Positions 6,377-41,369 of a stretch of DNA of 64,000 nt are shown here, piece by piece. The translations under genes were made by a program, and so were the position numbers. The notes beneath the pieces were generated by a model that did no database searches, had not been told where the DNA came from, and saw nothing but the letters and a program-made list of their open reading frames with translations. Source of the DNA: Candidatus Bathyarchaeota archaeon (lineage in GTDB: Archaea > Thermoproteota > Bathyarchaeia > Bathyarchaeales > Bathycorpusculaceae); the NCBI GenBank assembly GCA_963707955.1, contig OY970176.1:1408001-1472000 (forward strand), given 5' to 3'. Position 1 is the first letter of the stretch; the number at the start of each line of letters is the position of its first letter.

Positions 6377-6884
6377 TATTTTTTCGCTTCGCGACTTCTA
6401 GGAATGAGAACAATGAGTTACAATGGTCTCCTAAAGGAGAACATTAAACCTATCGTTCTCACTCTCTATTTTTAAGTGCTTTAAGAGAAAAAGGCATGGA
6501 AGTATTTATTCTTTCTTTAAGCCTTCCTCAACGTTATGCTCCCGTCGCTGTTTTTCTCGATTCTTAGAATCATTCCCTTCTGCCTGCACGTCGCAGATGA
6601 CGTTTGGATAGTGTTTCCGTGGGAAGCACGTTGATGTGGCGCTCGCGCACATCCTCTTTCTCATTTTGTTGTTGAGATGCAGTTGATGGGACATTTTGTT
6701 ATTTTAACTGACAAAAAAGGCAGTTAATGTATATTTTAAGTGAGACTGTGATACTTCAGAGAATTATGTCCACAGTTGCTTCCAGATCTTTCAAGCAAGA
6801 CTACCACAAGACAACTTTCATATTAGGTATCTTTGTTAGCGCGCGCTAATGAGCTAGATTTTGACTGTTTGACAATGATGAAAA

Positions 6885-7323
6885 GTGATATCTGTCAGAG
6901 CCTTATCAATACCATTTGTAGAGGCATCGAGGTTGGACTATAGTGAAATCTTGGTTGGACTGGTATCAGTGGTCGTAGGTGCTTTCGTTGGTTTTCTCGG
7001 TTCAATAATACGCGACTGGCGGAAAGAGAAGAACGAGAAGAAAGAGTTGAAGAGTCGCATAAAAGAAGACCTTGAAATCATCAAAGATAAACTGGTTTCC
7101 GACCTGCAAACAGGAAACGTGCGTCCTCAAGCATTTTTTATTGAGGTGTATGCGGCTCTGAAGCAAGAAGCTAATTCGTAACTTAAATGTGAAAATATCT
7201 CAAAGCGTTCTACGGACTCACATCACGCTTGATGAACTGAGAATGCCTTTGCCAGAGGAAGAGTTGAAAAAGAAGTATTTAGAAGCCATGAATGTAATAA
7301 ACGGAACCTTGAAATTACTCTAG
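6885..7323 (+). pseudogene. single-TM hypothetical protein with a frameshift near 7170
   Basis: N-terminal hydrophobic helix; reading continues in another frame as LIRNLNVKISQ...GTLKLL* to TAG at 7323. Confidence 0.55.
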
Positions 7324-7407
7324 GACTACGCGCGCCCGAACTACATGCTCAGACAAAATCCAAGACTTAATGAGAAAGAAGTTCATTAGAGTATTGAGAG
7401 TCTGTTT

Positions 7408-7521
7408 ATGAGCAGGCGTAGACGGTTTGACAGACTTGAATGTCAGGGTTGCATTTACAAGGGTAGCACGTACTGCTGGAGACAGTGCCCGTATAACATC
7501 TGGAAGACGGAAGAATACTAG
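7408..7521 (+). CDS. 37-aa basic Cys4 microprotein (MSRRRRFDRLECQGCIYKGSTYCWRQCPYNIWKTEEY)
   Basis: Below the ORF-track cutoff; CxxC-x7-CxxxC pattern and Arg-rich start. Confidence 0.6.
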   Translation: MSRRRRFDRLECQGCIYKGSTYCWRQCPYNIWKTEEY

Positions 7522-7552
7522 ATCTCACGCTGAGCGAACGCAACGATTGAGA

Positions 7553-7645
7553 CTACTTCTTCAAGCGTTTCTCCTTGTGCTTTCTTCTTTTCTCTTCTCT
7601 TTCCTTTTTAGTCATTGGTTTCTTTTTAGTGCTTCCAGTGCTCAA
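7553..7645 (-). CDS. 30-aa Lys/Arg-rich microprotein (MSTGSTKKKPMTKKEREEKRRKHKEKRLKK)
   Basis: TTG start preceded by SD-like GGTGAT; strongly biased composition. Confidence 0.6.
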   Translation of the reverse strand: MSTGSTKKKPMTKKEREEKRRKHKEKRLKK

Positions 7646-7680
7646 TGCAATCACCACGCCTAAATAGTCAGAATAGGGAA

Positions 7681-7833
7681 TTAAGTTTCTGCGCGCGCTC
7701 TGGCTAATGCGCGTGCTTCTTCTTTTCTCCTTACTTTTTCAACGTTACTCTTTCCATGTTTCCATTTTCCTCGGCTTTTCATTCTTTTCAAAAATCGTTC
7801 TCTTTTCGCCTGCTTCTTCTCAGATCGTTTCAA
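7681..7833 (-). CDS. 50-aa Lys/Arg-rich microprotein (MKRSEKKQAKRERFLKRMKSRGKWKHGK...)
   Basis: TTG start with GGAGG upstream; co-oriented with the 30-aa basic ORF. Confidence 0.6.
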   Translation of the reverse strand: MKRSEKKQAKRERFLKRMKSRGKWKHGKSNVEKVRRKEEARALARARAET

Positions 7834-8093
7834 ACAAATCTTCCCTCCCAGAATCAAATAGTAACAACAAACAAGAACTATAACCTATCACCTAAATGCG
7901 AAGTGAATGCTGTGTCTGAAACCGGAATCTAGGATAAGGGAGCCGCGTGAAAACATCCTCAGGATGGCTCTGTTGTTTAATCGCTTTATAAGGGAGTATA
8001 CGTAGTATAGGACTGCGGCGTTCTGTTGTTGAAGGACGAGAAGAACACAGCAACGTTACAAGTTAAAATCAATGATGAAAGATGTGATGGAAA

Positions 8094-8381
8094 ATGGCGG
8101 AAAAATCGGCAATTGTTTTCATTGGAAGTAAAACACCAATGGACTATGTTCTAGCAGTTATCACCAGACTATCCGCGGGCGATGCTAAGGAAGTGATCTT
8201 GAAAGCACGAGGACGAGCAATCACAACAGCTGTTGACGTAGCTGAAATAACCAGAAATCGCTTCCTAAAAGACCTAAAAGTGAGCAAAATAGCTATCGGA
8301 ACAGAGGAGATGCCGGCAAGAGAAGGCGAAAACAGAGCAAGGATGGTTTCAACAATAGAAATAAGCCTTGCAAAAGAGTAG
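8094..8381 (+). CDS. albA: DNA/RNA-binding protein Alba
   Basis: [31 protein letters not shown]; TTTATAAG box at ~7985. Confidence 0.95.
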
Positions 8382-8451
8382 GAGAACCCTCAAGAAACAC
8401 ACGCGCAATTATAGTGAGGGACTATTAAGAAGCGGACAACGATAAAAACCA

Positions 8452-8547
8452 ATGAAGCTTGCTGTTCTGGTCTACGAGTATCCCCCAAAGATCGTCGGTG
8501 GCTTGGGAACCTACCCGGCTGAAATGACTCGCAAGTTTTATTCGTAG
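8452..8547 (+). pseudogene. N-terminal fragment of a GT4 glycosyltransferase
   Basis: MKLAVLVYEYPPKIVGGLGTY is a typical GT4 N-terminus; cut off at the tbp 3' end. Confidence 0.75.
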
Positions 8548-9101
8548 AATATGAGGTTTTGTTCTTCTAAGCTTGCGTGAAGCTTGTGCACTGCGTCATA
8601 AACGTCCTGTTCTTTCTTCGCTCCTGTGCAGACAAGGTTTCCGCTTGCGAATATCAGTATGACTACTTTAGGTTCGTCCATCCTGTAGATCAATCCTGGA
8701 AACTGCTCCGGTTCATACATGGTTTTTACAAGCTTGCTAACTGCCTGTTCCAAGTCTACTTTTCCGCCTAAGCTTACGGAGGCAACGATGTTCTGAATCT
8801 TCAACTCCGGTTTGCTGATGATGATTATTCCACTCTTTTTCAACTCTTTAACAACTGTCAATACAGCCCTGCGGGCTTCTTTTTCCGATTTCGCTCCCGT
8901 GCAAACCATTTTTCCAGAATTGAAAATCAGCGTGGCTGTCTTCGGTCGTTTGAGCCTATACACCAGTCCTGGAAACTGTTCTGGACGATATTCTACTCCT
9001 GGATTACTCTTCACGACAGCGTTTAAGTCGACTTTCTGGCTTAGTGTGGCAGAAGCAACAACGTTTTGAATGTGTACTATTGCTTTAGTCTTTGGCATCA
9101 A
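8538..9101 (-). CDS. tbp: TATA-box binding protein
   Basis: Two repeats of QN(V/I)VAS / PEQFPGL / LIFxSG..VCTGAK. Confidence 0.97.
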   Translation of the reverse strand: MMPKTKAIVHIQNVVASATLSQKVDLNAVVKSNPGVEYRPEQFPGLVYRLKRPKTATLIFNSGKMVCTGAKSEKEARRAVLTVVKELKKSGIIIISKPELKIQNIVASVSLGGKVDLEQAVSKLVKTMYEPEQFPGLIYRMDEPKVVILIFASGNLVCTGAKKEQDVYDAVHKLHASLEEQNLIFYE

Positions 9102-9111
9102 AAACCACTTC

Positions 9112-9774
9112 CTACAGTGCGTGTGCGCATTCGATGACGCTTAAGCTTCCGCTTCTCCCCAGTCGCAACTGCCGTTCACCGCTGAACCAAGCTACTTTGC
9201 CATTCTTGACATCAATTACGTCGCCCTCATGCACCGTGTCGATCTGCTGGTTCCATAAACTCATTTTCATCGAACCAGTTTCGTCTCTGATAAGTGCGTT
9301 TGATACACAAGCAGTTGTTCCATATCTCGTTTGGACGATTCTAGATTTCGGAATTTCAAGCACCTTTGCTTTAAGACTGATCTTCTTCATTCCAACTTTC
9401 AAGTCACCAATTTTAGAGTTAGCACCCTCAAAATTCTTAAATGAGGAAACTCTGGCCAAAATTGCTTCCGTAAAGCTTTCGAGCTGATCCTTTCCTCGCA
9501 GGATGGCAATCGATATCGGAAATTGAGCTACAACCTTTCGCTCGTTGGTAAAGAGAAAATTCGCTGAATTCTTCTTCCTCTTGCGACATTTCACAACCAA
9601 CTGCTTACATTCTGACCCGTCGTTATTCCAAGCTTCCACGATACAATTGAAAAATTCACTCGAATCAACCTTATGCAACACCGCAATTCTCGCAAGGTAC
9701 TCCAGAATCCGTCCATCTTTGTATGAAATGCTGTTAAGAGGCCTGCCTCTACCTCTCCAAATTTGTCTAGCCAT
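9112..9774 (-). CDS. OB-fold (SSB/RPA-like) protein with unknown N-terminal domain
   Basis: C-terminal KIGDLKVGMK...IRDETGSMKMSLWN...GDVIDVKNG...QLRLGRSG is typical of a crenarchaeal SSB OB fold; 10 bp from tbp. Confidence 0.8.
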   Translation of the reverse strand: MARQIWRGRGRPLNSISYKDGRILEYLARIAVLHKVDSSEFFNCIVEAWNNDGSECKQLVVKCRKRKKNSANFLFTNERKVVAQFPISIAILRGKDQLESFTEAILARVSSFKNFEGANSKIGDLKVGMKKISLKAKVLEIPKSRIVQTRYGTTACVSNALIRDETGSMKMSLWNQQIDTVHEGDVIDVKNGKVAWFSGERQLRLGRSGSLSVIECAHAL

Positions 9775-9944
9775 CTAACTTGTTTCCACTCTGCTTTTTT
9801 TCACTCGACAAATCCATCGCTAAAATAATAGATCTGGAATGTGCATCTCACTATTCTCAACATCACTTATATAGCTTAGCTGCTAGGCCTACCTGTCTAT
9901 AGTTGTTGAAGTCGTCTGAGGTACGCCCTAACGTTTAGCGCGTT

Positions 9945-10074
9945 CTAGCTGAGCAGTTCGACTCTTGCTCCTATTGCTTGTCCAAGTGTGCCTTTGTGGA
10001 ATTTGGCTGTGACAACGCTTTTCTTGCCGTGCAAGCCCATAATTTTGCCGATGAAGCTGTTCTGTCCATACTAA
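9945..10074 (-). pseudogene. rpl35ae: C-terminal fragment of ribosomal protein L35Ae
   Basis: (LVW, frameshift) GQNSFIGKIMGLHGKKSVVTAKFHKGTLGQAIGARVELLS* resembles the L35Ae GKI...HG..G.V.ARF...LPGQA.G motif; starts at a (CG)n tract. Confidence 0.7.
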
Positions 10075-10188
10075 CGCGCGCTCCAGACCATAAAAAGACT
10101 CGGGCACCTAACACTCAGGCAGTAGCCAAGAAAAGGTTTCTCCTTCTCTGCACTCACTTCTTTGCTTCAATCGAATGTCCAAGGGTTT

Positions 10189-10330
10189 AAACGCGAATTT
10201 GCAGAGTATTTGGGCGCAAAGCATGCAATTTGTATCTCAAACGGCACAGTATCCCTTGAAATAGCTCTGTTAGCTATGGGTGTAGGTAAGAGTGATGAGG
10301 TCATCACTTCGCCTTGTGCATTCGGTGTCG
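10189..10330 (+). pseudogene. internal fragment of a DegT/DnrJ/EryC1 aminotransferase
   Basis: FAEYLGAKHAICISNGTVSLEIALLAMGVGKSDEVITSP; no start and no C-terminus. Confidence 0.8.
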
Positions 10331-10459
10331 TTCCAATAAGGTGTGTGTTAAAAAAATCTTCACTGCAGTACACTACAACTAGGGATTAACAAAACGCGCA
10401 TGCTCATTTTTGCAACAACTTGCAAGAGATCATGATTTGACTGAATGTGTATGCGTCAG

Positions 10460-10600
10460 CTAATGAAGTTGATAGTTTATTTTTCCTTTTTCATTCACTT
10501 TAGATATGATTATGGTGAATTGTGCACCTTTGCCAGGAATGACATTTTCTTGTATGGTCCAACCGTAAAATTCCGTAATCTGGATCAGGTAAAGTCCGTA
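10460..10600 (-). pseudogene. C-terminal fragment of a sensor histidine kinase (HATPase_c)
   Basis: YGLYLIQITEFYGWTIQENVIPGKGAQFTIII covers the G2-G3 box region; begins 6 bp from a (GC)5 tract. Confidence 0.75.
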
Positions 10601-10684
10601 GTCTGAGCGCGCGCGCTAAATTGAAAAGGTGACAAAACTTCTATATATGTTAGGTGTCTAAGCTTGAACTAGCGGAGATCGAAT

Positions 10685-10909
10685 ATGAAACCTGAGCATT
10701 ATAAACCGATAAGGAAAGAAAAGCCCAAACGAAAGGGCAAGATTAGTGCGCGCAAGAGTCGAATGCTTGCAGAGGCTCAAGAATGGAAACCCATCACTTC
10801 TCCACAATTGCGTGAGGCTTACTCTGCTAAAATAGAATGGGTAAGGAAGCTAATTCCCAAATTGAAAAGAGAAGCAGAAGTGCCGGAAGAAAAAAAAGAG
10901 CTTAGATAA
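10685..10909 (+). CDS. basic hypothetical protein (74 aa)
   Basis: TATATA box at ~10642, GGAGA SD-like site, K/R-rich. Confidence 0.65.
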   Translation: MKPEHYKPIRKEKPKRKGKISARKSRMLAEAQEWKPITSPQLREAYSAKIEWVRKLIPKLKREAEVPEEKKELR

Positions 10910-11031
10910 GCGCACGCGCGCGCTTTTTACGTTTCGCTTAATTATCCTAATGTTGTTTATCCTAATGTTGTTCTTTTCCTAAGAACTATCGGAAGTACCA
11001 AATCGTGAATTACCATTCTGCTCATTTGAAA

Positions 11032-11259
11032 TCACTCCATCTTAACTTTAAGAATCCATTTTCCTTTAGGACTGCCGTCTAAATCGACTCCTCTGCCCTT
11101 TAACACTTTAAATTCGCCCTGTTTCAAACCTAAATTTTGCATGGCGAATTCTGTTGCTTGTTTAATCGTACAGAATCCAGCTGGTTTCTTTGCCTCAGTC
11201 TCTGTAAATCCCCATTCTGGCGGAACTAAACTGCCTATTTGCAAAACTTTTAATCTCAT
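11032..11259 (-). CDS. hypothetical protein (75 aa)
   Basis: ATG with GGAGG SD. Confidence 0.6.
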   Translation of the reverse strand: MRLKVLQIGSLVPPEWGFTETEAKKPAGFCTIKQATEFAMQNLGLKQGEFKVLKGRGVDLDGSPKGKWILKVKME

Positions 11260-11485
11260 TCCTCTTTAACCTCCTCAAGGGAAATAGCAGAACAGTCTAT
11301 GAATCGACAGTCTCGTCACTTCATGTCTTCGCTCCAGCTATTATAGAATGGAAATCGCTGTTAAAGCTTGCTTATCCCTTTAAGAAATCTTCTTCAAGCC
11401 AATTTTATGTATCAGAGAAAAATAGGGAAAGTTACGTTATAACCATTCTCCCAATCAATAATAACTCAACAATTTAGTAATAGAG

Positions 11486-11566
11486 TTACTTCTTTTCCTC
11501 TGGCTTTTTCTCTGCGGGTTTCTTTTCCTCTTTTTTCTCTTCCTTCTTCTTTCGCTTCAAGGGCAT
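11486..11566 (-). CDS. 26-aa Lys/Glu microprotein (MPLKRKKKEEKKEEKKPAEKKPEEKK)
   Basis: ATG preceded by strong SD GGGGTGAT; directly downstream of the Cren7-like gene. Confidence 0.65.
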   Translation of the reverse strand: MPLKRKKKEEKKEEKKPAEKKPEEKK

Positions 11567-11606
11567 GTCAATCACCCCCACTTAGTTTGTTATTGGCTCA
11601 TGGATG

Positions 11607-11777
11607 TCAGATCTTTTGTTTGCTCAACGCAACTCTAAATGGTTTCTTGCATTGTGAGCAATCGAAAAGACCGATCTCCATCTGCATCCTCTTGCCCGTT
11701 TTGTCAGGTCGACCAGCCATCGTCCATCTTTTCTTTGGCGAACTCACTTCGGTTCCACACTTTGGACATTTAGCCAT
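11607..11777 (-). CDS. Cren7-like chromatin protein with zinc ribbon
   Basis: MAKCPKCGTEVSSPKKRWTMAG...IGLFDCSQCKKPFR matches the Cren7 P.K.W...IGLF...K.FR pattern; GGAGG SD. Confidence 0.8.
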   Translation of the reverse strand: MAKCPKCGTEVSSPKKRWTMAGRPDKTGKRMQMEIGLFDCSQCKKPFRVALSKQKI

Positions 11778-11899
11778 AACGTTTCCTCCATTACCAGTCA
11801 TCATGTCGTTGTAAACCGAATGAATAAAGGGTTTATGATGCTTTTAGTCCGTTCTTGCTCTGTCATTCTTTCACTTTCCATTTCCGGTCGAGTTCTCAA

Positions 11900-11947
11900 T
11901 CATTTCTTTGTGTGCTTTTTCTTGCTCTTCTTTTTCTTCTTGCCCAA
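11900..11947 (-). CDS. 15-aa poly-Lys peptide (MGKKKKKSKKKHTKK)
   Basis: TTG with GGAGG SD and a TTTTATATA box ~60 bp upstream; very short, so uncertain. Confidence 0.45.
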   Translation of the reverse strand: MGKKKKKSKKKHTKK

Positions 11948-12295
11948 AAGCCTCCCCCCGCGCTAAATCGCGTAATTCGTTCCTGTGTAATGTAATCAGG
12001 TCATATATAAAAAATATCAAATCAAAAACGTTATTATTGGTTTTACCACCACTGCTTCAAAATTCTCAACTGCTTCTGGTTGACCTACAAACACGCGCGC
12101 GCCCCGCCGAGACCCGCGCCCGAAAGAACAGGGCATGCTGCTTAACACTCTTCGCAACAAAGATGACTGCCAAGCGCGCATGCATGTTCCTAAAATGACT
12201 TTATGAAAGACGTCTGATATGTATTGCGTGGACTGGCTAGTCTTTGACTATGGTCCGTGCGACCGGTAAAATGACTGGACGATGCCCGTGAGCTG

Positions 12296-12645
12296 CTAGA
12301 TGACGCCGTGAAGATTGCCGAGGAGATTGTTGAGGTGATGCAGCCTGACATGGAAACCCGTTTCAAAGTCTGCTCAGGATACGTTCTCTCCAGCATACGT
12401 AGACACCTGCGAAACCAAGGATTTAACGTGGAAGAAGTGGAAATCAGAGGCGAACTCCAAGCGATGGTTGCGCTAAGCTACGTAAGATGGTGCCGGCAGA
12501 AAGACTGGAAGACGAGAGACGCTTCTGGGCGCTTTTAGAATGGGTTGCGGAAAAACCCAAAATCAGAGAAAAACTCGTAAAAACAGGGTGGAAAAGCTGG
12601 CGTGAAAAGTGGCGAGAGCATGCTTTTAAGATGGCTAGAAAATAA
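12296..12645 (+). pseudogene. degraded C-terminal fragment of a hypothetical protein
   Basis: Protein-like pieces in two frames (...FKVCSGYVLS...; EWVAEKPKIREKLVKTGWKSW); no credible start. Confidence 0.45.
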
Positions 12646-12728
12646 CGTTGGAAAATATTTCGGAAGACTATCTGCTTTCTAGGGGAATAAAATTAGGCAG
12701 GTCAATGTGGAAAAAACACTAAAAAGTC

Positions 12729-12956
12729 TTATTTGACTATTTCAGCGTTTGCGGCGCTACGGCCTATCCTCGTGATCCTTATTTTAACATGGTCTCTAGG
12801 CTTTGCGTTGGCAACGAATATTACGAAACCTTGGATTCTGGCTATGTCTTCCCCTTGGCGGCTCGTCTCCGTTATGTCCACTTCGTATTCCTTGCCCATC
12901 TCAACTGGGCAAGGCTTAAAGTCCCCACCATAACCGCGTCTTCTCTCATAACTCAT
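12729..12956 (-). CDS. single TRAM-domain RNA-binding protein
   Basis: PVEMGKEYEVDITETSRQGEDIARIQGFVIFVANAKPRDHVKIRIT; GGAGG SD; two usually conserved Gly are substituted. Confidence 0.85.
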   Translation of the reverse strand: MSYERRRGYGGDFKPCPVEMGKEYEVDITETSRQGEDIARIQGFVIFVANAKPRDHVKIRITRIGRSAANAEIVK

Positions 12957-13145
12957 AGGGCATCTTCCTCCTTTCACATTTGTGATGATAATGCTCACTT
13001 TAAGACTTTAAGTGTTCGCGCGCGTCATGAGACACCTAGAGAACTTGATGAGGCTTTGGATAAAGCTGATGCCTATATCTTGGGAGCTCCATTGTACTGT
13101 TTGGAGGTAAATGGTTTAACCAGGACTGAAGGAACGGGGATAAAC

Positions 13146-13439
13146 ATGATATCGTCTAAGGCGAAAAATCGAATGAAACGTGAGCTAAGCTTGGAGAAGC
13201 CAACAATATGGGTTGGTAAGGAGGGAGCGTCGCCGCAGACGGTGAATGAGATTTCTAGGCAGTTGGAGAAAAGGAAAATAGTGAAAGTTCAAATATTGAA
13301 AAACGCGCTTAAGGATGAGAGCGCCAAAGACATCGCGTCAAAAACAGCTCAGCAAACGGCATCCACCCTAATCGATGTTCGAGGACACACTTTCATACTG
13401 CATAAGCCTCGCAAAAAGAGAAGTGAAAAGCCTCTGTGA
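13146..13439 (+). CDS. YhbY/CRM-domain RNA-binding protein
   Basis: KPTIWVGKEG, IVKVQIL, DVRGHTFIL; real start at ATG 13146, not 12789. Confidence 0.88.
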   Translation: MISSKAKNRMKRELSLEKPTIWVGKEGASPQTVNEISRQLEKRKIVKVQILKNALKDESAKDIASKTAQQTASTLIDVRGHTFILHKPRKKRSEKPL

Positions 13440-13742
13440 GAGGACCGTTTAGAGGTTTTGAAAGGGATGAGATTGGAATAATCTTGTTGAGGAAGGTTCA
13501 AAAACACCCATTTCCTTCATGCCTTTAACCTTGCTTTCATGAACCTACCTCTGTCAAGAGATCCTAAAATGGCTGACGCATCCATTGACAAAGACGCGCG
13601 CGGAGCTGCGTGGACCTTGTATGCATGTCAGCACATGCCTTATTTGTATTGAAGTTTCAGGGTCACTTTAATGGTCCTCTACTTATATTGGGAGAAAGGA
13701 TTAGTGCTTCTATCAGAAATATATTTAGTGGAGCGTTGAAGA

Positions 13743-15911
13743 TTGAGCGAAGTTCAGCTGAGAGTTCTGGATTCCAGACAGAGAGATGTGGCAAGAGGAA
13801 TCGCTAGAATAGACCAGACCACAATGCAAAAGTTAGGAGTTTCATCTGGAGACGTAATAGAGTTCTCAGGGAAGAAAAAGACGTCGGCGATCGCTTGGCC
13901 AGCGTACTCTGAAGAACAGGATCCAAGCATTATGCGAATCGATGGGTTCTTACGTAAAAATGCCGGCGTATCAATAAACGAGTACGTTGTAGTTCGCAAG
14001 GCTGAAGTTAAAAATGCTATGAGCATAGTGCTTGCTCCAGTGGATATGCGATTTAACTTTGACGAAGACTTTGCAAATTTTGTGAAGAACAGACTTATGG
14101 ATAGGACGTTTGTTGAGGGAGACACGACGCTCGTTATGATGCTTGGTCATTCCGTTCAATTCACTGTTGCGAAGATGCAGCCCCACGGAATAGTCAAGAT
14201 GACTCACGATACTAGATTGCAGATATTGACTGAACCTGTTGCGGAAGCTGAAGTTGTGCCACGTACCACCTATGAGGACTTAGGAGGGTTGGAGGAGGAG
14301 ATTCAACGGATAAGGGAGATGGTTGAACTTCCAATGGAGCATCCCGAGATTTTCCAGAGGCTTGGAATAGATCCTCCGAAAGGGGTTCTACTGATCGGTC
14401 CACCCGGCTGCGGAAAGACACTCCTAGCTAGAGCAGTAGCGAATGAGTCTGGTGCAAACTTTTTCTCAATAAACGGGCCTGAGATAATAAGTAAGTTCTA
14501 TGGGGAGTCGGAGGCGAGGCTTCGAGAAATATTTCAACAGGCCCAACAGAACGCTCCGAGCATTATACTCATAGACGAGCTGGACTCCATAGCGCCCAAA
14601 CGTGAGGAGGTTACAGGTGAAGTGGAGAGAAGGGTTGTCGCTCAGCTTCTAGCTCTCATGGACGGATTGTCTGGTAGAGGAAATGTCATAGTAATAGGTG
14701 TAACGAACAGGCCGAATGCCTTGGATCCAGCTCTCAGGAGGCCTGGGAGGTTTGACCGCGAGATAGAGATAGGGATCCCAGACAAGCGGGGGCGTCATGA
14801 AATATTGTTGATTCATAGCAGAGGCATGCCCCTAGCCGGTGATGTTGACTTAAAGGTGCTTGCTGAGCGGGCGCACGGTTACACGGGTGCCGACTTGGCC
14901 GCCCTGTGTAGAGAGACAGCTATGAAAGCTCTACGTAGGTATCTTCCCGAGATAAATCTGGAGGAAGAGCGAATACCTTCCTGCGTCCTGGAGAAGATGG
15001 AGGTTCGGATGGATGATTTCATGAACGCCTTCAAGGAGATTACGCCTACAGTCATGAGGGAGGTTGCTGTGGAAGTCCCGGTTGTTCATTGGGATGAAGT
15101 GGGAGGCTTGGAGGAGGTTAAAGAGGAGTTAAAGGAGGCTGTTGAGTGGCCGCTGAAGAATCCTGAAGTCTTCAAGAGATTGGGGATTCAGCCGCCTAAG
15201 GGTATACTGTTAATAGGTCCGCCCGGTTGTGGGAAGACGATGCTGGCCAGGGCTGTTGCAACTGAGAGCGAGGCAAACTTCATCTCGATTAAGGGTCCGG
15301 AGGTCTTTTCTAAGTGGGTTGGCGAGTCTGAAAGGGCTGTTCGAGAGGTCTTCAGGAAGGCTAGAATGGCTTCGCCAGCCGTCATATTCTTCGATGAGAT
15401 TGACTCTCTTGCCCCAAGGAGGAGGCTGGGTTACGGCGACAGCGGCGTAACTGAACGCGTCATCAGCCAGCTTTTAACAGAAATGGATGGAATGATACGC
15501 TCAGAAGACATCATATTCTTAGCTGCGACAAATAGGCCCGACATCATCGACCCAGCCGCATTAAGGCCAGGCAGATTCGATCGGCTGATATATGTTCCAG
15601 AACCTGACGAAGCTGCCAGGCTTGAAATCTTTAAGATTCACACGAAGAACATGCCACTATCAAAGGATGTGGACATAAAGGAGCATCGCATAACGAAAGG
15701 TTACTCCGGCGCCGATATATCATCCGTGTGCAGAGAGGCCGCCATGAACGCTTTGAAAAGAGACATCAACGCAAAAGAGGTCACCTTCAGCGATTTTGAG
15801 AAAGCTATGGAGAAGGTTCCACCAAGCATACCGCCAGAAATTGAGAATTGGTACAGGAGCTTCATGAATCAGGTTCGAAGGATGCAGAAACCTACGCCTC
15901 TTATAGTGTAA
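13743..15911 (+). CDS. cdc48: CDC48/VAT family AAA+ ATPase
   Basis: N-domain plus two AAA modules (GPPGCGKT x2, RPGRFDR x2). Confidence 0.97.
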
Positions 15912-16033
15912 TCCCAGAAGCGACAGATAAACGTCAATTCACCCCTCTCTCTAGTCAACCTTTTTGATTCGCGCGCGCGGAAAACCGTGCGAAACACGCA
16001 CGTCCGTTCTTCCTCCTCGCTCTTGATTTCTGT

Positions 16034-17386
16034 TTAGATTTTGTCCTTTGATAGTTTTGCGATAAAGAAGCCGTTGCATTTGTGAGTGTGAGGATAGAGC
16101 CTTTGACATTTTTCTAATCCTCTCAGTCCGGACGAGCCTATTCTTGGCGTTATTTCGCTCAATGAAAGCTCGGGATGCCATTTCAGGAATTTTTCAATGA
16201 TCATTTCATTCTCTTCGGCTGTTACACTGCATGTAGAATAGATTAATACGCCTCCTGACTTTACCTTATCTGCGCAGTTGTTCAGCATTTGCCATTGAAT
16301 TTCAGCCATTCGCTCAATCGACCTGGGGGTAAGCCGCCATTTGGCTGAAGGCACTTTTCCGAAGGTGCCTGTGCCCGTGCATGGTGGATCTAAAACTATG
16401 ATGTCTGCCTCTTCCGTGAACGGTAATGGGGTACGTGCATCTGCAATGATTGGTTCGGCGATCTCTACACCCATGTGTACAATTTGGCTTTTCCAGACGG
16501 TGATTCTGCGCTTTGAGTAATCTATGGAGAGGATGCTGCCGCGGTTCTGCATTAACTGGGCCAGATAGGTGGTTTTTGCTCCTGGGGCCGCACAAACATC
16601 TAAGACGGTCATTCTAGGTTGTGGGTTTGCGGTTTCTACTGTGAAGCAGCTTGCCTTGTCTTCAACGTAGAATAGGCCTTCCTTGAAGCTTGATGCTCTG
16701 GTTACAGGTTGTTTTGCTGCTGCGACTTTGTACGTGTAGCGCAACTGTTCAACCTTCTCAAGTCTAACGCCTTCTTCAGAGAGTCTTTCAAGAATTTGCT
16801 TTTCCTCAGCTTTGAGGGTGTTCAGTCTAAGATAAGTTGGCGGCGGTTGCGCATTTGCTTCTAGCATGGCAATAGTTTGGTTTCTGCCGAATAGTTTGAA
16901 GCAGTATTTTACGAACCACGTTGGATGGAAAGTTTGAAGTCCAACCTGTTCCTCGCCACCTGCACCTGCAAACACCATTGCAGGCCGTTGGGTCAATAGC
17001 ATGCCTAGGAAGGGCTCTACTTTAATTAGCGTTTTCCATCCTAGAATGCTGCGTGCCAGTTTAGCTATGCTCCCAGCTTCTTTGAGGTTCGGACTGAACC
17101 AGTTTTTAGCCATTCGCATTTGATAAACATAAAGTCGCAGGAACGCCTGCACGCCCAAACTGCATTCGTTGATTGTCGCAGGTTTCATGGTGCCATTTAT
17201 GAATTTGTCTATGAAGTTTTGCCGGCGAACAGTTTCAGAAACAAGCATATGAGCTAATCTTAAAGAGTCATGGTCTTCTATGCCTAGCTGTTTAACCGTT
17301 CTCGCGAAGGCTAAAGGCTCACTTAATCTTCGCATTTCCATCCAGCTCAGAGTTTCAATGGCAAGCGTCCAAGCTTCTTTGAGCAA
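16034..17386 (-). CDS. RsmB/NOP2 family RNA m5C methyltransferase
   Basis: LDVCAAPGAKT, LDPPCTGTG, YSTCS, GFFIAKL. Confidence 0.93.
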   Translation of the reverse strand: MLKEAWTLAIETLSWMEMRRLSEPLAFARTVKQLGIEDHDSLRLAHMLVSETVRRQNFIDKFINGTMKPATINECSLGVQAFLRLYVYQMRMAKNWFSPNLKEAGSIAKLARSILGWKTLIKVEPFLGMLLTQRPAMVFAGAGGEEQVGLQTFHPTWFVKYCFKLFGRNQTIAMLEANAQPPPTYLRLNTLKAEEKQILERLSEEGVRLEKVEQLRYTYKVAAAKQPVTRASSFKEGLFYVEDKASCFTVETANPQPRMTVLDVCAAPGAKTTYLAQLMQNRGSILSIDYSKRRITVWKSQIVHMGVEIAEPIIADARTPLPFTEEADIIVLDPPCTGTGTFGKVPSAKWRLTPRSIERMAEIQWQMLNNCADKVKSGGVLIYSTCSVTAEENEMIIEKFLKWHPELSLSEITPRIGSSGLRGLEKCQRLYPHTHKCNGFFIAKLSKDKI

Positions 17387-30224: not shown

Positions 30225-30633
30225 CTAGACACACTCTCGCAGTCAAATCTAGACAAGGAAAAATTAAACCTTTGCGGCAAGAAACGACCTCTTTGACAAG
30301 GTCACAGCAACAAGTGAAAAGAATACATCAATTGAAGAAACCAGCGATAGAAGCTCTGAGCGAAACAGAAGCGAAAGAGTCGTGAAATCGAGTTCCTGTT
30401 AACAGGCAAAGAAACCTTAGAAAGTTAATCAACGCTTCTAAAGACAAAATATCATCTATCAAATCCATCACCAGCGAGTCATCCAAGGCGCGCGATACCA
30501 AAAACCAAGATTCTCATTAGGAGACTCAGTGAATGAAGTCAGGCTCTCCCTGGCAGTGTCCTGGATTTTCTGAGTTGCTAGGAAAAGGTGCGAGGTGCTC
30601 ACCAAGAGAATACTAATATTCTGTTGCAATAGA

Positions 30634-30936: not shown

Positions 30937-31116
30937 CCCCTATTTCAAGAAGTCTCTAAGCATCGGCGCGCATGTCTGTTCCTAAGTTGCTTGTGGGTAG
31001 GGTTTCTTGTTTTGTTTAGTTCGTGGACGACGATGCGTGTTAGGATGCGTCTCTTGGAGAGACATGGCTCAGTTGCGGGGCAGAGAAGGTGGCTCTGGAA
31101 AAATGCGTGCGCCATT

Positions 31117-31160
31117 CGGGGGAGGGGGGACTTCTCTTGCTCTGACACCCCCTACCCCCG
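31117..31160. repeat. G/C-rich inverted repeat
   Basis: CGGGGGAGGGGG ... CCCCCTACCCCCG, complementary with one bulge. Confidence 0.6.
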
Positions 31161-31290
31161 GTCAACGATATGATCCAAATATGATTCAAAGCTCATGCGT
31201 ATGTCCAACTTAGCTCACCTCCGTCAGGCTTGAAAAACTAGTCTAGGAACACGCATGCGCGCTAACACGTCTTGACTTCTACGTTCGCTT

Positions 31291-32966: not shown

Positions 32967-32972
32967 CGGCTC

Positions 32973-34456: not shown

Positions 34457-34692
34457 CTGTGGTATATGAAGTTGGAAGCTCAAATGGAAGAAGTATTAAA
34501 GAATCTTCGGACAAACAATTTTGGCCCCAAATTTGCGCGCGCTCGATCTCTCGTTCGAGAAGCTATACCTAGCTACCAGAAACGAAGGTCTCAACGGGAT
34601 TTCTTGTGAGACATTTTTATAGTGTCTTGAGCAAATGATTTTCTATCGTCCTTCTCGGGCGATTTGAATGAAATCATTACAGTTGATGCGGT

Positions 34693-35541: not shown

Positions 35542-35684
35542 CTTTAGGATGGAGATCGCGCGCGCTTCTCTATTCTGTTAATCACTTTTTTCACCGTTAT
35601 GTTTTGCCCTCGCTTCCTTTAGTCTGCGCGCTTTTAAAGTAGTTCACGAAATTAGACGTCCGTAGGAGGGAAGAGAAACATATT

Positions 35685-38162: not shown

Positions 38163-38269
38163 GATTGAACCCACAAACACGTTCTTTGTTATGAATCTAA
38201 TATGGGTTATGAACCAGAAAAATGAATCACTGCTAAACATGTTACAACCCTCACCGCAGCACGAGCTAA

Positions 38270-38324
38270 TGACGTCGGGGAAGGAACTCGAACCTTGCAA
38301 GTCAAAGGCTCATTGCCTTGCTTG
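38270..38324 (-). repeat. degenerate copy of the 3' half of tRNA-Ser (att-like remnant)
   Basis: TGACGTCGGGGAAGGAACTCGAACCTTGCAAGTCAAAGGCTCATTGCCT aligns with TGGCGCCGGGGAAGGGACTCGAACCCCTGCGAGCCCGAAGGCCCACTGGCT at 42369. Confidence 0.8.
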
Positions 38325-38472
38325 GCCTCCGTTCTTCAAGTTGATTGTTTTCAGAGCTCAAGCGAGCGCTCCAAGTTGTCTGTTGCGCAAGAGCTTCGAA
38401 GATCTAGGAAGGTTTAATATGAATCTCCTTCATCTGCCTATGAAAACGTGACCAGCCGAGAAGGAGACGGCT

Positions 38473-40440
38473 TTGTCAGTCAAGCTCAAGAAACCAATCA
38501 ATGTTGTAAAGACTGTTTGCCACAGGGATTGTCCAGATACGTGCTTTGTTGACGTCATTGTTGAAGATGGCAGGATCGTATCCACGACGGGCAGTATGGA
38601 AAGCCCCATAACTCAGGGGTTTCTGTGTCCTCGAGGAGTGGGAGACCCCAAGCGGGTATACAGTGAAGACCGCGTTCTTTATCCTCACGTCAACAATGGA
38701 GGCAAATTTGGACGAGTTTCTTGGTCAGACGCTCTGGAACTGGTTGCCAAAGAATTGACTAGTATCATGGAGAATTACGGCAATGAATCGGTTTTGCTTT
38801 ATGATTATGCGGGCAACCAAGGATGTCTTAGCTGGCAGTTCTCCCAAAGACTATGGCGCGCGTTAGGCATGACGGTTACGGACGGCGCTCTGTGCAGCGC
38901 ATCCGGGCACGCTGGAATCGGACTCCACTACGGGCTCACATACGGCCTCGGATTTGAGGAAGTTCTTAATTGCGGAGCCATCCTGTTTTGGGGAAACAAC
39001 ACAAGAGTCAGTTCTCCTCACCTTTGGGCCCTTTCGCTGAGAGCGCGAAAGGAAAGAGGTGCAACGTTGATATCTATTGACCCTAGAAAGAGCGAGACCT
39101 CCGAATGCTCCGACCTCTGGGTTAACCCTCGCCCAGGCAGCGACGTAGCACTGTCTTACGGAATAGCGCGATGGCTCATTGAACACGATAAACTGGCTGA
39201 GAAATTCATCGAAGAATGGACCACTGGATACGACAAATTCAGGGAAGAAGTAAAAGGCTGGACACCTAGGCGCGTGGAAAGTGCAACAAACCTCGCATGG
39301 AAAAAAGTTGAGGAGCTATGTGAGTTACTCGTTGAGAAACCTCCTGTATGCTTCATGATAGGTCTGGGGTTAAACAAGTCGAGTTATGGCGCAGAGGCCG
39401 TTAGGGCTGTGAGTTTACTACCGGCGTTACTTGGACAGCATCGTGGATTCCACTACAGTGACTCTAGAGGCCGATTCATCGATTGGGGTTATATGAACGG
39501 CAGCAAGATGAGCAGCAAAAAGTCGAAAGTCGTTGAGCAGGTTTCGGTGGGCTCGAGATTAAGCTCTGGTGAGTTCAAGTTCGTTTTCATCAAGGGTTCC
39601 AACCCCGCTTCAACGCTTCCAAACCAGAACGCGGTACGAGCTGGTCTTTCAAGAGAAGACGTGTTTGTAGTTGTTCATGAAACACATTGGACCGAGACCG
39701 CGAAACTCGCGGATGTTGTTCTGCCCGCGGCCACGTATCTGGAGAAATCTGACCTGAATTTCTCTGACCATCACCCGTACACTCGGCTATCTACAAAAGC
39801 GATTGAGCCGCTTGAAGAGTGCAAGGACGAAGTCTGGGTCATGCAACAGCTTGCTGAGAGGTTAAGTTGCCGCGAGTCCTGGGTGTTTGAGGACTCATGG
39901 CAAGCCCTTCGAAAGGCCACGGCAGAGTCGTTTGAAAATGGAAGCTTCGATGACTTACTCAAAGGGGAGACACTGAAACTCCGGCAGCGGCCCACGAATG
40001 AGTATCAGACGCCTTCAGGGAAGATCGAACTATATTCTTCAGGAGCCCTGGAAGTAGGTGCGAGTCCCCTGCCAGCGCAGCTGCCAATCAACGGGGATGA
40101 AAGCTGGTTTACCCTACTGAACAGCTCTCTTCCCAATTGGACCCACAGCCAGTTCAGAGACGTTTACGGTCCGATTCCAGAGATCGTGTGGATCAATCCT
40201 GTTGATGCAAGTAGTCTTGGGATAGAGAACGGAGATGACGTTACCATTTTCAACGAGTTTGGAGCACTAACTGTCGAAGCAATCACAACCGAAAGGGTCT
40301 CCAAGGGAGTTCTGTGGTCGCCGAGACCTTTGACTGGGAAAAACGGTGTTCCATTAAACAGCTTGGCATCAAGTAATCCACAGATTCTTGGTGCAGGCCC
40401 TCGGTTTAACTCAATCAGAGTTAAGATCAAAACTAGTTAG
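38473..40440 (+). CDS. molybdopterin-dependent oxidoreductase (DMSO reductase superfamily)
   Basis: CHRDCPDTC...CPRG Fe-S motif, ADVVLPAATYLEK, TPSGKIE, INPVDA. Confidence 0.93.
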   Translation: MSVKLKKPINVVKTVCHRDCPDTCFVDVIVEDGRIVSTTGSMESPITQGFLCPRGVGDPKRVYSEDRVLYPHVNNGGKFGRVSWSDALELVAKELTSIMENYGNESVLLYDYAGNQGCLSWQFSQRLWRALGMTVTDGALCSASGHAGIGLHYGLTYGLGFEEVLNCGAILFWGNNTRVSSPHLWALSLRARKERGATLISIDPRKSETSECSDLWVNPRPGSDVALSYGIARWLIEHDKLAEKFIEEWTTGYDKFREEVKGWTPRRVESATNLAWKKVEELCELLVEKPPVCFMIGLGLNKSSYGAEAVRAVSLLPALLGQHRGFHYSDSRGRFIDWGYMNGSKMSSKKSKVVEQVSVGSRLSSGEFKFVFIKGSNPASTLPNQNAVRAGLSREDVFVVVHETHWTETAKLADVVLPAATYLEKSDLNFSDHHPYTRLSTKAIEPLEECKDEVWVMQQLAERLSCRESWVFEDSWQALRKATAESFENGSFDDLLKGETLKLRQRPTNEYQTPSGKIELYSSGALEVGASPLPAQLPINGDESWFTLLNSSLPNWTHSQFRDVYGPIPEIVWINPVDASSLGIENGDDVTIFNEFGALTVEAITTERVSKGVLWSPRPLTGKNGVPLNSLASSNPQILGAGPRFNSIRVKIKTS

Positions 40441-40463
40441 CCGCGCGCTAAGGTGTTTCCGAC

Positions 40464-41180
40464 ATGAAAAACGTGTTACTGTTCGACCTCGGCAATACAC
40501 TAGTCCAATACTATGATGTGCGCGATTTTCCAGCTATTCTCAAGCAAGCCATCATCGAAGTACAAGACTACCTTTCCCAAAATGAACTTCTCCACGTTTC
40601 TGAGGATGGTTTATGGTGTAGGGTAAGAGAAGAAGATCACGAATCTAGCGACTACCGTGTTAGGCCGCTCGAGGAGCGGTTGGCGCGAATTTTCGAACTT
40701 GACAACTTGCCCAGCGATAGCCGCGTTGCAGTTGCCATGTGTAGGTGTTTCATGAAGCCCATATTTGGTCGAGGTTACTGCTATGAAGACTCCTTGCCAG
40801 CTCTCAGGGAGCTGAGGGAAAAAGGCTACAGAACGGCGATTATATCTAACACGAGTTGGGGAAGCCCAACCTATCTCTGGCGGGAGGAGCTGAACCGTTT
40901 GGGGTTGAGCACATGCGTGAACACAGTTGTGTTTTGCAGAGATGCAGGGTGGCGAAAACCTGCTAGACAAATCTTCCTTTACGCTCTGGAGAAGCTGTCT
41001 GCTCTTCCTCAAGACTGCGTTTTTGTGGGTGACGAACCGAAGTGGGACGTAGTTGGACCTCGAGCTGTTGGAATAACGCCAATACTCATTGATCGGTCAG
41101 GAGCAAGACAGTCCTCTGTTGAACCGAAACCCATCAGGACCCTTAACGAGCTTCTACACAGCTTGAGACTCTTAGAGTAG
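40464..41180 (+). CDS. HAD family hydrolase
   Basis: FDLGNTL, ISN, RKP, FVGD...D. Confidence 0.92.
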   Translation: MKNVLLFDLGNTLVQYYDVRDFPAILKQAIIEVQDYLSQNELLHVSEDGLWCRVREEDHESSDYRVRPLEERLARIFELDNLPSDSRVAVAMCRCFMKPIFGRGYCYEDSLPALRELREKGYRTAIISNTSWGSPTYLWREELNRLGLSTCVNTVVFCRDAGWRKPARQIFLYALEKLSALPQDCVFVGDEPKWDVVGPRAVGITPILIDRSGARQSSVEPKPIRTLNELLHSLRLLE

Positions 41181-41369
41181 TCACGGAATAGTGTTTAGAA
41201 ACCTCGAGCAAACAGATCTCACTCCTCATCTACCGTGTAAACCGATCGTCATCTCTGAACTTTTCCTTCTGGAACTTGAAGAATCAAAACTTCTGGCTTC
41301 CGAGTAGATGTGCCTATCAGAAAGCGCGCGCACCCTTTGACCTGGCTGTAGTCAATTATGATTCTGTGT

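Follow-up and report, generated by a model that had tools for sequence, protein, structure and literature searches.

Alternating GC tracts mark rearrangement seams in a Bathyarchaeia genome and point to an apparently undescribed mode of DNA breakage and rejoining

The closest described counterparts of the tracts reported here are of several kinds. The cyanobacterial element HIP1 (GCGATCGC) is located both in genes and between genes and is tied to orphan methylases; the likeness is that of a GC-rich, lineage-specific octamer palindrome that is the top over-represented genome word. REP/BIME elements, with their RAYT transposases, and the Neisseria dRS3/NIME elements are 20-40 nt units whose arms are conserved and which have a Y1 or IS110-type partner enzyme; they are similar in forming hundreds of short intergenic palindromes that flank mosaic modules and are targeted by insertion sequences. 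N-nucleotides and filler DNA (TdT, Pol mu/lambda, Pol theta, bacterial LigD polymerase) also place non-parental letters exactly at junctions, and the known end-joining fillers are variable or templated. Integron cassettes share gene-sized modules, a recurring palindromic boundary and exchange between genomes; their attC sites are imperfect palindromes of 57-141 bp, with the integrase adjacent and the cassettes facing one way. Fragile, Z-DNA-prone (CG)n microsatellites likewise tie alternating CG to breakage and rearrangement, and have lengths that tail off smoothly, without a preferred phase. Target duplications or excision footprints of IS5-family elements are comparable in that GCGCGC flanks an element and its MITEs, whose empty sites read as tracts. 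No published account of such tract seams was found in the literature.

The window, i.e. the whole 64,000-nt stretch of DNA that was analysed, belongs to the closed 2.35 Mb genome of a member of the Bathyarchaeia (G000). Unless another cut-off is stated, a tract is an alternating-CG run of at least 7 nt. An earlier note on this DNA had listed 21 such runs: all 21 were found in place (7-10 nt), and four overlooked tracts (3305, 3524, 7691 and 38856) brought the number to 25. The full palindromes that it described were also recovered, TAGCGCGCGCTA occurring at 6837-6848 (extending to a 14-nt palindrome, 6836-6849) and at 27563-27574. The region 42.5-64 kb was tract-free, as reported: zero tracts and only four GCGCGC hexamers (53392, 59098, 60833 and 61144) lie past 41331. 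Few tracts had been seen in genes, which agrees with a count of 3/25 (3305, 3524 and 38856), although the genic/intergenic split rests on crude gene calls. An enrichment count gave 58 occurrences of GCGCGCG on both strands, versus a mean of 5.4 in 100 dinucleotide-preserving shuffles (largest shuffle count, 13).

GCGCGCGC runs mark seams where DNA was deleted, inserted, flipped or swapped. The window carries a 13.4-kb mosaic insertion: in G001 and G007, positions 6001-6420 directly abut 19855 onwards. The empty site (gagtTA/TTAACA) is without a tract, and in the filled site each side has TA and the right end alone bears a tract. Modules of the insertion recur elsewhere in G000 and in related genomes, with ends that coincide with tracts. 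The YhbY module (13017-13601) has a second, 100% identical copy at G000:715099-715683. The RsmB module is 96% identical in G009, versus ~70% for neighbouring core DNA, and its end is a tract in G000, G009 and G004, with different surroundings in each. The features of the insertion are as follows (unstranded unless marked):

6421..19854, 13.4-kb mosaic insertion, absent from the locus in congeners; 16/25 window tracts
6839..6846, (GC)4, part of the 14-nt palindrome 6836-6849
7329..7335, 7-nt tract, start of a block with a repeat elsewhere in G000
7691..7698, (GC)4, meeting point of two blocks homologous to G009
10075..10081, 7-nt tract; block ends at 10072, 10081 is a start or joint of contigs from three studies
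10607..10616, (GC)5, at block ends
10915..10923, 9-nt tract, end of block 10602-10912
12094..12102, 9-nt tract, no block end seen in the sequences compared
12174..12200, + strand, solitary end of the MITE family of 30966..31262
13017..13024, YhbY module, left boundary
13595..13602, YhbY module, right boundary; start of a contig piece from another study at 13603
15970..15979, RsmB module, left boundary
17431..17440, RsmB module, right boundary; tract decayed in G001:C33
17721..17727, 7-nt tract, adjoins block 17730-18452
18454..18462, 9-nt tract, at block ends
18987..18995, 9-nt tract, adjoins block 18997-19138
19156..19165, (GC)5, coincides with block ends; a contig piece ends at 19155
19846..19854, 9-nt tract, right edge of the 13.4-kb insertion

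Outside the insertion, the window contained the following tracts and MITE-like elements (all unstranded):

3305..3311, CGCGCGC, 7 nt, within the S19 gene
3524..3532, CGCGCGCGC, 9 nt, in the L2 gene close to its 3' end; retained in G007, 7 nt in G001
27565..27572, TAGCGCGCGCTA site; a 166-nt MITE there in G001, TCGCGAGC in G007
30488..30494, 7-nt tract, left neighbour of the MazG gene
30966..31262, MITE-like element, inverted ends GCGCGC-ATG..TGTTCCTAAG
34535..34542, (GC)4, 11 nt within the left end of a 2.8-kb stretch absent from G007; (GC)5 in G001
35557..35565, 9-nt tract; segment-replacement boundary versus G001 at a distance of 14 nt
38856..38862, 7-nt run, molybdopterin oxidoreductase gene; likely background
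40442..40448, left-edge tract of a 1.9-kb stretch with HAD and GNAT genes
41324..41331, (GC)4, within the same 1.9-kb stretch
60833..61149, second MITE-like element, family of 30966..31262

As we read the alignment, a second tract (GCGCGCG) in G007 stands 11 nt to the right of the 30488..30494 tract, replaces the MazG gene body (~30506-30921) and adjoins the surviving last bases of that gene. The 1.9-kb HAD/GNAT stretch, whose opposite edge is a tRNA gene at 42372, is represented by 28 nt in G001 and G007.

A comparison of the tracts with breakpoints had been suggested: homology blocks do end at tracts, with a block end no more than 10 nt from 13/25 tracts in the window (shifted controls 0-4; random site 5%) and from 14/67 tracts in G001 (controls 0-5). 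A further measure came from the self-comparison of G000, in which 116 of the 2725 distinct repeat endpoints fell within 3 nt of a tract, a zone that makes up 0.38% of the genome (shifted controls 8-41); 75 of the 78 tracts touching a repeat carry one of its endpoints. In G001, a close relative, the DNA on both sides of 38/67 tracts has no counterpart in G000, while 72-90% of each sampled G001 contig has such a counterpart.

New tracts stand at derived junctions. G000:1768846 reads ...aataGCGCGCGCGagtt... where ~1.0 kb stands in G001 and G007 and ~0.9-1.2 kb is present in G003, G004 and G009; the long form in G001 has no tract of at least 7 nt inside. G001:C1:214342 reads ccgtaa/(GC)5/aaacaag where G000 and G007 have ~4 kb, including a stretch also retained in G004, G009 and G008. 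The GCGCGCG that replaces the MazG gene body in G007 is a further new tract of this kind. Firm polarity is confined to the first two deletions, and in many other pairs of tract and long alleles the direction could be either. An inversion in G007 (16-nt exact reverse-complement match to G000) has a tract at both junctions, and the tract at G001:C3:19943 is a pure insertion, missing from G000 and G007. Contigs from four other metagenome studies have joints at tracts: one omits the DNA between the tracts at 18458 and 19167, another joins 19847 to 20185 via GTAGGCGCGCGC, and opposite-strand joints link 11414 to 18461 and occur at 10081. Indel boundaries without tracts (for example, left edge of the 13.4-kb insertion; 172-nt insertion at 28733) indicate that the process does not mark every junction.

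Genome-wide, GCGCGCGC is the top-frequency 8-mer of G000 (464 copies versus 28 expected), and 641 tracts were counted. Runs of 6, 7, 8, 9, 10 and 11 nt number 510, 186, 267, 130, 56 and 2, respectively, so that almost nothing exceeds 10 nt; the length spectra of (AG)n and (AC)n fall smoothly. The phase is fixed, with (GC)4 at 231 and (CG)4 at 36, and the flanks are conserved at +/-1 only (A...T), with nothing further out. On crude gene calls, 84-92% of the 8-10 nt tracts are intergenic; tracts are in excess within 20 nt past stop codons and their density peaks between convergent genes (1.65 per kb), with no orientation and no fixed gene distance among G000 tracts. The earlier note had assigned the tracts to an accessory zone. 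They are not confined to it, and that zone of the window also has core-type genes (TBP, Alba, CDC48, RsmB and S17e), but the tie to flexible DNA holds, given the share of window tracts in the insertion mosaic and of G001 tracts without a G000 counterpart.

Tract turnover is fast: of 17 G001 tracts whose flanks both map to G000, 5 were retained, and few sites are common to genomes that are ~93% identical. About half of the non-conserved sites differ by substitutions alone, at equal length, which fits decay; conversion toward the motif would also fit. The same tracts and length spectrum were found in ten congeners, and a 368-kb sample of G009 has the phase, length and flank pattern of G000. Across the class the distribution is patchy, with 21 tract-rich genomes among the 401 sampled (380 others).

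The tracts do not track any of four candidate makers that were tested: the IS5-like MITE found beside some tracts, Ku-LigD end joining, a C5 methylase or an orphan N4/N6 methylase. Ku-LigD is present in G000 and occurs in 6/21 tract-rich genomes versus 120/380 others. Searches of G000 found no PolX, Prim-Pol or reverse transcriptase.

We put at about even chances the reading that the tracts are scars of a putative end-joining or cassette-joining process, afterwards reused as break points, and the tracts point to an apparently undescribed mode of DNA breakage and rejoining. A lineage-restricted process would join two DNA ends through a short linker that is self-complementary and fixed in phase, (GC)4 or sometimes (GC)5, often as A(GC)nT, at deletions, at inversions and upon capture of loose fragments or gene cassettes. 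The ends may be tailed or linked with alternating GC and then annealed, perhaps by a dedicated, possibly transferable, gene set. A tract once made would be the preferred point of the next break or exchange, and tract-bounded, gene-sized modules would therefore be shuffled within the genome and transferred from species to species. Tracts would also serve as insertion sites of an IS5-like MITE family and would afterwards decay fast through point mutation. Among the interpretations offered in the earlier note, an undescribed recombination or repair signature at module boundaries is thus the one favoured by the block ends, derived junctions, inversion and contig joints.

Alternatively, the tracts could be pre-existing cassette crossover or cut sites. 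A nuclease or recombinase would cut within the palindrome, and the ends, being compatible, could be rejoined in whatever order and orientation; an allele with a tract alone would then be an empty cassette slot, with nothing newly written. Modules with tracts at both ends and intact genes between them agree with this, as does a 3.3-kb insert of G001 that is tract-bounded on both sides, and a symmetric site predicts inversions and deletions between tracts, both of which were observed. We nevertheless hold it to be unlikely: at both polarised deletions the long allele is tract-free at its boundaries and inside, the empty site of the 13.4-kb insertion is tract-free, the tracts are without conserved recombinase-binding arms, and searches of G000 for IS110 and Y1 transposases found none.

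The ends of a ~200 bp MITE family and of a 1.06-kb element with a DUF772+DDE_Tnp_1 transposase are GCGCGC, and the 3.3-kb insert of G001 stands in place of the left 159 nt of the 30966..31262 MITE. These IS5-like elements might duplicate GCGC, or insert at tracts, and leave GCGC+GCGC upon excision. Orthologous empty sites were a tract or near-tract in 6/6 examined, flank statistics match (-1 A in 67% of MITE ends versus 58% of solitary tracts), the 8>9>10 spectrum fits an 8-nt unit lengthened by chance flanks, and the transposase occurs in 10/21 tract-rich genomes versus 69/380 others. Such footprints are nonetheless a rather improbable source of the tracts. MITE ends are almost absent from tract-rich G009 (359 GCGCGCGC, 1 end), and zero were counted in G008 (254 GCGCGCGC) and G024 (227); the 368-kb sample of G009, with its full tract pattern, has no repeat that is tract-ended on both sides. 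Close transposase homologues (75-79% identical) occur in tract-poor G389, G341, G355, G404 and G245, no allele pair contrasts a GCGC allele with a GCGCGCGC allele, and the deletion scars are without transposon remains. In view of this evidence, the MITEs more likely use tracts as insertion targets.

An analogy with HIP1 had also been drawn, and methylation-linked biased repair could convert near-matches into such a palindrome. The commonest 8-mer is indeed an octamer palindrome, about ten sites lie 1-3 substitutions from a near-tract of equal length, and at one site a (GC)4 arises from two changes specific to G000. The analogy fails, and we rate this origin as quite improbable, because the 8-10 nt tracts are so largely intergenic and many tract births are indels or replacements rather than substitutions. 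The suggested search for a cognate methylase found no C5 methylase in G000. An orphan N4/N6 methylase, M4, occurs in G024 as well as in the three densest congeners, which would suit such a link. It was found in 6/21 tract-rich genomes versus 44/380 others and not in G009, G003 or G008, so that tracts neither need it nor follow from its presence; conservation within the genus is lacking for methylases M1-M3.

Intergenic placement, the excess past stops and the density between convergent genes would suit a cis-element (terminator, regulator site or Z-DNA boundary), and a plain (CG)n microsatellite can be considered with it; both are very improbable. The protein-binding site envisaged in the earlier note, like any conserved regulatory site, is unlikely since few sites are retained between ~93% identical genomes, and a cis-element would not be expected to lack both orientation and a fixed gene distance. 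The emphasis on Z-DNA formation leaves the phase bias and the hard 10-nt stop, atypical of a microsatellite, unexplained. An assembly or sequencing artefact, for which no supporting evidence was found, can practically be dismissed, as the tracts and their spectrum recur in the congeners and in the tract-rich genomes of the class, and contigs of other studies cover tracts, for example at 9825-10772, 15848-17209 and 19027-19919, without differences.

Set against the known systems, the tracts therefore differ from each. IS5-family footprints would require an element that several tract-rich genomes lack and tract-poor ones possess. Compared with REP/BIME and dRS3/NIME units, they are 8-10 nt long with unconserved flanks, and Y1/IS110 enzymes were not found in G000. 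In contrast to integrons, there are no arms, genes lie in both directions, and no integrase was seen beside the tract array among the window genes scanned. Unlike HIP1, the 8-10 nt tracts are largely intergenic (84-92%), no cognate methylase emerges, and births occur at indel junctions. (CG)n microsatellites are set apart by the (GC)4:(CG)4 ratio of 231:36 and by the 2/641 tracts that reach 11 nt. Finally, whereas known fillers vary or are templated, the letters at these junctions do not track Ku-LigD and form a single defined self-complementary sequence.

Each of the 21 tracts (alternating-CG runs) that the earlier note had listed for the window proved to be a run of 7-10 nt, and four further tracts were recorded at 3305, 3524, 7691 and 38856, giving a total of 25. 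Both full palindromes claimed there, at 6836-6849 and 27563-27574, are present, and 42.5-64 kb is free of tracts, as had been stated: none of at least 7 nt lies past 41331. The word GCGCGCG was counted on both strands and compared with dinucleotide-preserving shuffles of the window: 58 matches were obtained, against a shuffle mean of 5.4 and a maximum of 13.

The host genome (G000), whose relatives are Bathyarchaeia, is closed (2,346,764 bases, 47.9% G+C) and carries 641 tracts of at least 7 nt. Run lengths are distributed as follows: 510 runs of 6 nt, 186 of 7 nt, 267 of 8 nt, 130 of 9 nt, 56 of 10 nt and 2 of 11 nt. The spectrum thus peaks at 8 and ends at 10-11 nt, unlike the AG, CT, AC, GT and AT runs of the same genome, whose numbers fall smoothly with length. 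By rough extrapolation from the 4-6 nt counts, about 130, 35, 10 and 3 runs of 7, 8, 9 and 10 nt were expected, so that the signal begins at 8 nt. The most frequent 8-mer genome-wide is GCGCGCGC (464 copies, 28 expected from a first-order model), and the phase is biased: isolated GCGCGCGC, i.e. (GC)4, occurs 231 times and isolated CGCGCGCG, i.e. (CG)4, 36 times. Tracts tend to be preceded by A and followed by T (58%), with a bias at +/-1 only; flank positions 2-30 are at background, and a tract is therefore not a piece of a larger repeat, an explanation that was discarded on this ground. With a crude custom gene caller (2247 genes, 80% coding), 92% of the 8-mers, 91% of the 9-mers and 84% of the 10-mers were placed in intergenic DNA, which makes up 20% of the genome and holds 19.5% of the 4-nt CG runs.

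Tracts had been proposed to mark module boundaries, and comparison of homology blocks supports this: in the sequences compared, 13 of the 25 window tracts lie within 10 nt of a block end (0-4 for shifted positions), where a random site has a 5% chance of doing so. When the host genome was compared with itself, 116 of 2725 distinct endpoints fell within 3 nt of a tract (8-41 in shifted controls), a zone that covers 0.38% of the genome, and 78 tracts touch a repeat, all but 3 of them (75) carrying an endpoint of that repeat. Comparison samples were taken from two congeners, G001 (460 kb, ~93% identical) and G007 (340 kb), and from another Bathyarchaeia genome, G009 (368 kb). Among 67 G001 tracts of at least 8 nt, the flanking DNA is without a G000 counterpart on both sides in 38 and has one on a single side in 12; in 5, both sides are matched with no single alignment across, and the remaining 12 are crossed by one alignment. 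A G000 counterpart exists for 72-90% of each sampled G001 contig. For 17 G001 tracts the two flanks could both be placed in G000, and only 5 of these remain tracts of at least 7 nt there; tract turnover is therefore fast.

The region around the window tracts had been called an accessory zone. Its gene content does not fit that name, since the genes encode TBP, Alba, an SSB-like protein, CDC48, RsmB, S17e and AdoHcy hydrolase; the zone does contain a large insertion relative to the congeners. In G001 and G007, window 6001-6420 directly abuts 19855 onwards, and 6421-19854 is therefore a 13.4-kb insertion, which contains 16 of the 25 window tracts. Pieces of the insertion recur elsewhere in the host genome and in congeners, and the homology blocks stop at tracts, for example (further blocks exist):

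13017-13601, block bounded at tracts, with a 100% identical copy at G000:715099-715683
15971-17441, block bounded at tracts, the RsmB module
17730-18452, block bounded at tracts
19158-19845, block bounded at tracts

A tract terminates the RsmB module in G000, in G009 and in G004 (a further Bathyarchaeia genome), with different surroundings in each, and its 96% identity in G009, compared with ~70% for adjoining core DNA, suggests that it has passed from one species to another. Additional copies of information-processing genes (Alba, TBP, SSB-like protein, CDC48, RsmB, S17e) are held in the insertion at 8094-9774, 13743-15911, 16034-17386 and 18704-18952, and further copies, 69-100% identical, are found elsewhere in the host genome and in congeners.

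Contigs from four other metagenome studies were compared over window 6001-26000. One jumps from tract 18458 to tract 19167, another links 19847 to 20185 via GTAGGCGCGCGC, and several join opposite strands at 10081 and 18461; contig pieces begin or end at 10081, 13603 and 19155. Other contigs cross tracts without change, which argues against an assembly artefact, the weakest of the alternative explanations.

Tracts also occur where one genome carries DNA that another does not. At the deletion scar G000:1768846, a 9-nt tract stands in place of ~1.0 kb in G001 and G007 and of 0.9-1.2 kb in G003, G004 and G009, and no tract lies inside the long allele. At a second scar, G001:C1:214342 (on a G001 contig), ccgtaa-(GC)5-aaacaag corresponds to ~4 kb in G000 and G007, part of which is still kept in G004, G009 and G008. 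In G007, GCGCGCG replaces the body of a MazG gene, the last bases of which survive beside the tract. At least three more pairs of tract and long allele were found with unpolarised direction (G001:C1:21344, G001:C2:65894 and G000:1515547); in the last, a 189-nt case, the tract allele is common to G000 and G007, the whole region is missing from the outgroups and the polarity is ambiguous. In G007, a short inverted segment that matches the reverse complement of G000 exactly over 16 nt has a tract at both junctions, G001:C3:19943 is a pure insertion of a tract missing from both other compared genomes, and at replacement sites a tract stands where another genome has an unrelated short sequence. Some tracts differ between genomes in length (8 and 10 nt). 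At ~10 sites, alleles of equal length are 1-3 substitutions apart, several of these being CpG transitions (e.g. GCACGCGC, CGTGCGCG); such sites are read as tract decay.

On the best-supported reading, tracts are seams at which DNA was broken and rejoined, and they later serve again as break points. Their fixed phase, size of 8-10 nt and self-complementarity suggest that alternating GC would be added to DNA ends, as a tail or a linker, before the ends anneal, both the step and its enzyme being inferred. We tentatively propose, at somewhat less than even chances, that some Bathyarchaeia have a transferable enzyme system that writes a defined, self-complementary (GC)4-5 linker on DNA ends and joins arbitrary ends, because any two such linker ends can pair, and that it constitutes a sequence-defined end-joining and cassette-shuffling pathway which builds and remodels the flexible genome. 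If so, these archaea would stamp the points where DNA was rejoined with a single constant short sequence, and the enzyme activity would be new: either a nuclease working with a ligase, or a step that tails ends, or ligates a linker to them, with a defined sequence. Tracts would then form a readable record of rearrangement in uncultured genomes, and would account for the way in which a major lineage of sediments and soils builds its flexible genome out of gene-sized modules passing between species.

Candidate enzymes were assessed in a class survey of 401 genomes (at least 80% complete), in which genomes with at least 25 copies of AGCGCGCGCT were considered tract-rich: 21 genomes, from 18 genera in 4 families, were so classified, and a control word reached at most 7 copies in these genomes. 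Within one genus (g49), members have 104, 10 and 3 copies, and copy numbers differ as steeply in g11 (53, 1 and 3), g127 (83, 10, 7, 3 and 1) and g121 (65 and 13); differences of this kind among near relatives bring the genes behind the tracts within reach of comparative genomics. The host genome has a complete Ku-LigD operon at G000:957178-960233 (locus L224, 4179-7234), which encodes, in addition to Ku, a LigD-type polymerase and a ligase-3'-phosphoesterase fusion. Ku is present in 6 of the 21 tract-rich and 120 of the 380 other genomes, and two Ku-bearing genomes, G016 and G040, nevertheless have only 7 and 1 copies of GCGCGCGC; Ku-LigD was rejected as tract maker at the class level, since it is not co-distributed with tracts. 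The presence of Ku in 126 of the 401 sampled Bathyarchaeia genomes is wider than expected for archaea. Searches of the host genome for reverse transcriptase, Prim-Pol, PolX, Y1 (PF01797) and IS110 transposases returned nothing, and two PolY genes were found. No tested factor is necessary or sufficient for tracts.

Among the alternatives, the crossover site of a cassette system ranks first and transposon footprints rank second. A family of MITEs, short IS5-like elements mostly of ~200 bp, has the inverted ends GCGCGC-WWGS-N-TGTTCCTRAA; GCGCGC likewise flanks a related 1.06-kb element that encodes a DUF772+DDE_Tnp_1 transposase. All six empty sites examined are tracts or near-tracts (8, 8, 10, 6, 9 and 8 nt), in which the palindrome masks where any duplication would stop and the element end start. 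MITE ends number 56 in G000, 89 in G001, 31 in G003 and 21 in G007, but 1 in G009 and 0 in G008 and G024, although GCGCGCGC occurs 359, 254 and 227 times there. In the 368-kb G009 sample no repeat has tracts at both ends, and tract spectrum, phase and flanks match the host pattern. The IS5-like transposase is present in 10 of the 21 tract-rich and 69 of the 380 other genomes, and tract-poor genomes also carry close homologues. On the near-absence of ends in G009, G008 and G024, the spread of the transposase and the G009 sample, the family was rejected as tract maker; most likely, MITEs use tracts as targets. Duplication of a GCGC target to GCGCGCGC was likewise rejected, no such allele pair being present among the sites compared.

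Several related elements were observed. A 1750-nt element (locus L168, G000:1559002-1560753) with MITE-type inverted ends (TGTTGCTAAAT variant) encodes a MEDS/HTH regulator and a small zinc-finger-like ORF, with no transposase, and lies within a tract that G001 has without the element. At window 60837-61145 and the corresponding site in contigs G001:C3 and G007:C1, the three genomes carry different, diverged MITE variants (309, ~416 and ~404 nt). An 11-nt direct repeat (TAAGCATCGGC / TAAACATCGGC, at 30955-30965 and 32959-32969) brackets a 2-kb stretch missing in G007, which contains a MITE-like element, an M29 peptidase and a second MazG gene. Scanned for Rfam families and tRNAs, the window yielded one tRNA only, and the MITE-like elements gave no match. 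This tRNA (42372-42500, minus strand; 129 nt in Rfam, none reported by ARAGORN) is probably intron-bearing, and its 3' end is the right edge of a 1.9-kb variable stretch.

A HIP1-like drive ranks third. The cognate methylase suggested in the earlier note did not emerge: the host genome has no match to PF00145 (C5 methylase), and its orphan N4/N6 methylase, M4, is present in 6 of the 21 tract-rich and 44 of the 380 other genomes. Of its other DNA methylases, M1 and M2 adjoin IS elements, M3 is practically private to G000 and none of the three is conserved in the genus; all four were rejected as tract makers, M1-M3 on conservation and M4 on distribution. Two paralogous N4/N6 DNA methylases, 57% identical, were noted at loci L089 (5661-8429) and L090 (4007-6661), each by an IS6-type (DDE_Tnp_IS240) transposase gene. 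A cis-element, with which the intergenic position would agree, ranks fourth.

The right part of the window contains replication genes:

48532-49782, minus strand, cdc6/orc1
46915-48480, PolD small subunit
56664-60146, PolD large subunit

Beside cdc6/orc1, 49914-50425 contains a 35-nt inverted repeat pair (49922-49956 / 50107-50141) with a TTCCA.TGGAAA-type core, which resembles archaeal origin recognition boxes, and is probably the replication origin. This part of the window is free of tracts. In 80 loci of relatives compared around cdc6, the region is uninformative on tracts because it is tract-free in the host genome too.

In the literature accessible to full-text search, no published account of such tracts in archaea was found, and none of the repair, recombination or transposition systems compared (HIP1, REP, dRS3, integron, NHEJ) is known to leave a single constant short sequence where DNA has been rejoined. 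An octamer palindrome far over expectation is common to HIP1 and the host tracts. HIP1 occurs in coding and non-coding DNA alike, whereas tract 8-, 9- and 10-mers are 92/91/84% intergenic (crude gene calls), and none of the candidate methylases assessed in the host genome, the genus or the class survey is co-distributed with them. REP/BIME units are 20-40 nt with conserved stem-loop arms, whereas tracts are biased at +/-1 only (T 58%), and the REP/BIME partner RAYT (Y1, PF01797) has no match in G000. An IS or MITE footprint would require an element wherever tracts arise, which is not so in G009, G008 and G024. For filler of the Ku-LigD type, the required Ku, LigD polymerase, ligase and phosphoesterase are all in G000, but their distribution does not follow tracts. 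Integron arrays have an integrase, long attC sites and one-way cassettes, whereas tract sites are 8-10 nt, the genes face both ways and no integrase was found among the 38 ORFs scanned in window 6.8-43.4 kb. Finally, a (CG)n microsatellite or Z-DNA former would have no phase and a smooth spectrum, whereas the tracts are phased (231 vs 36) and their spectrum peaks at 8.
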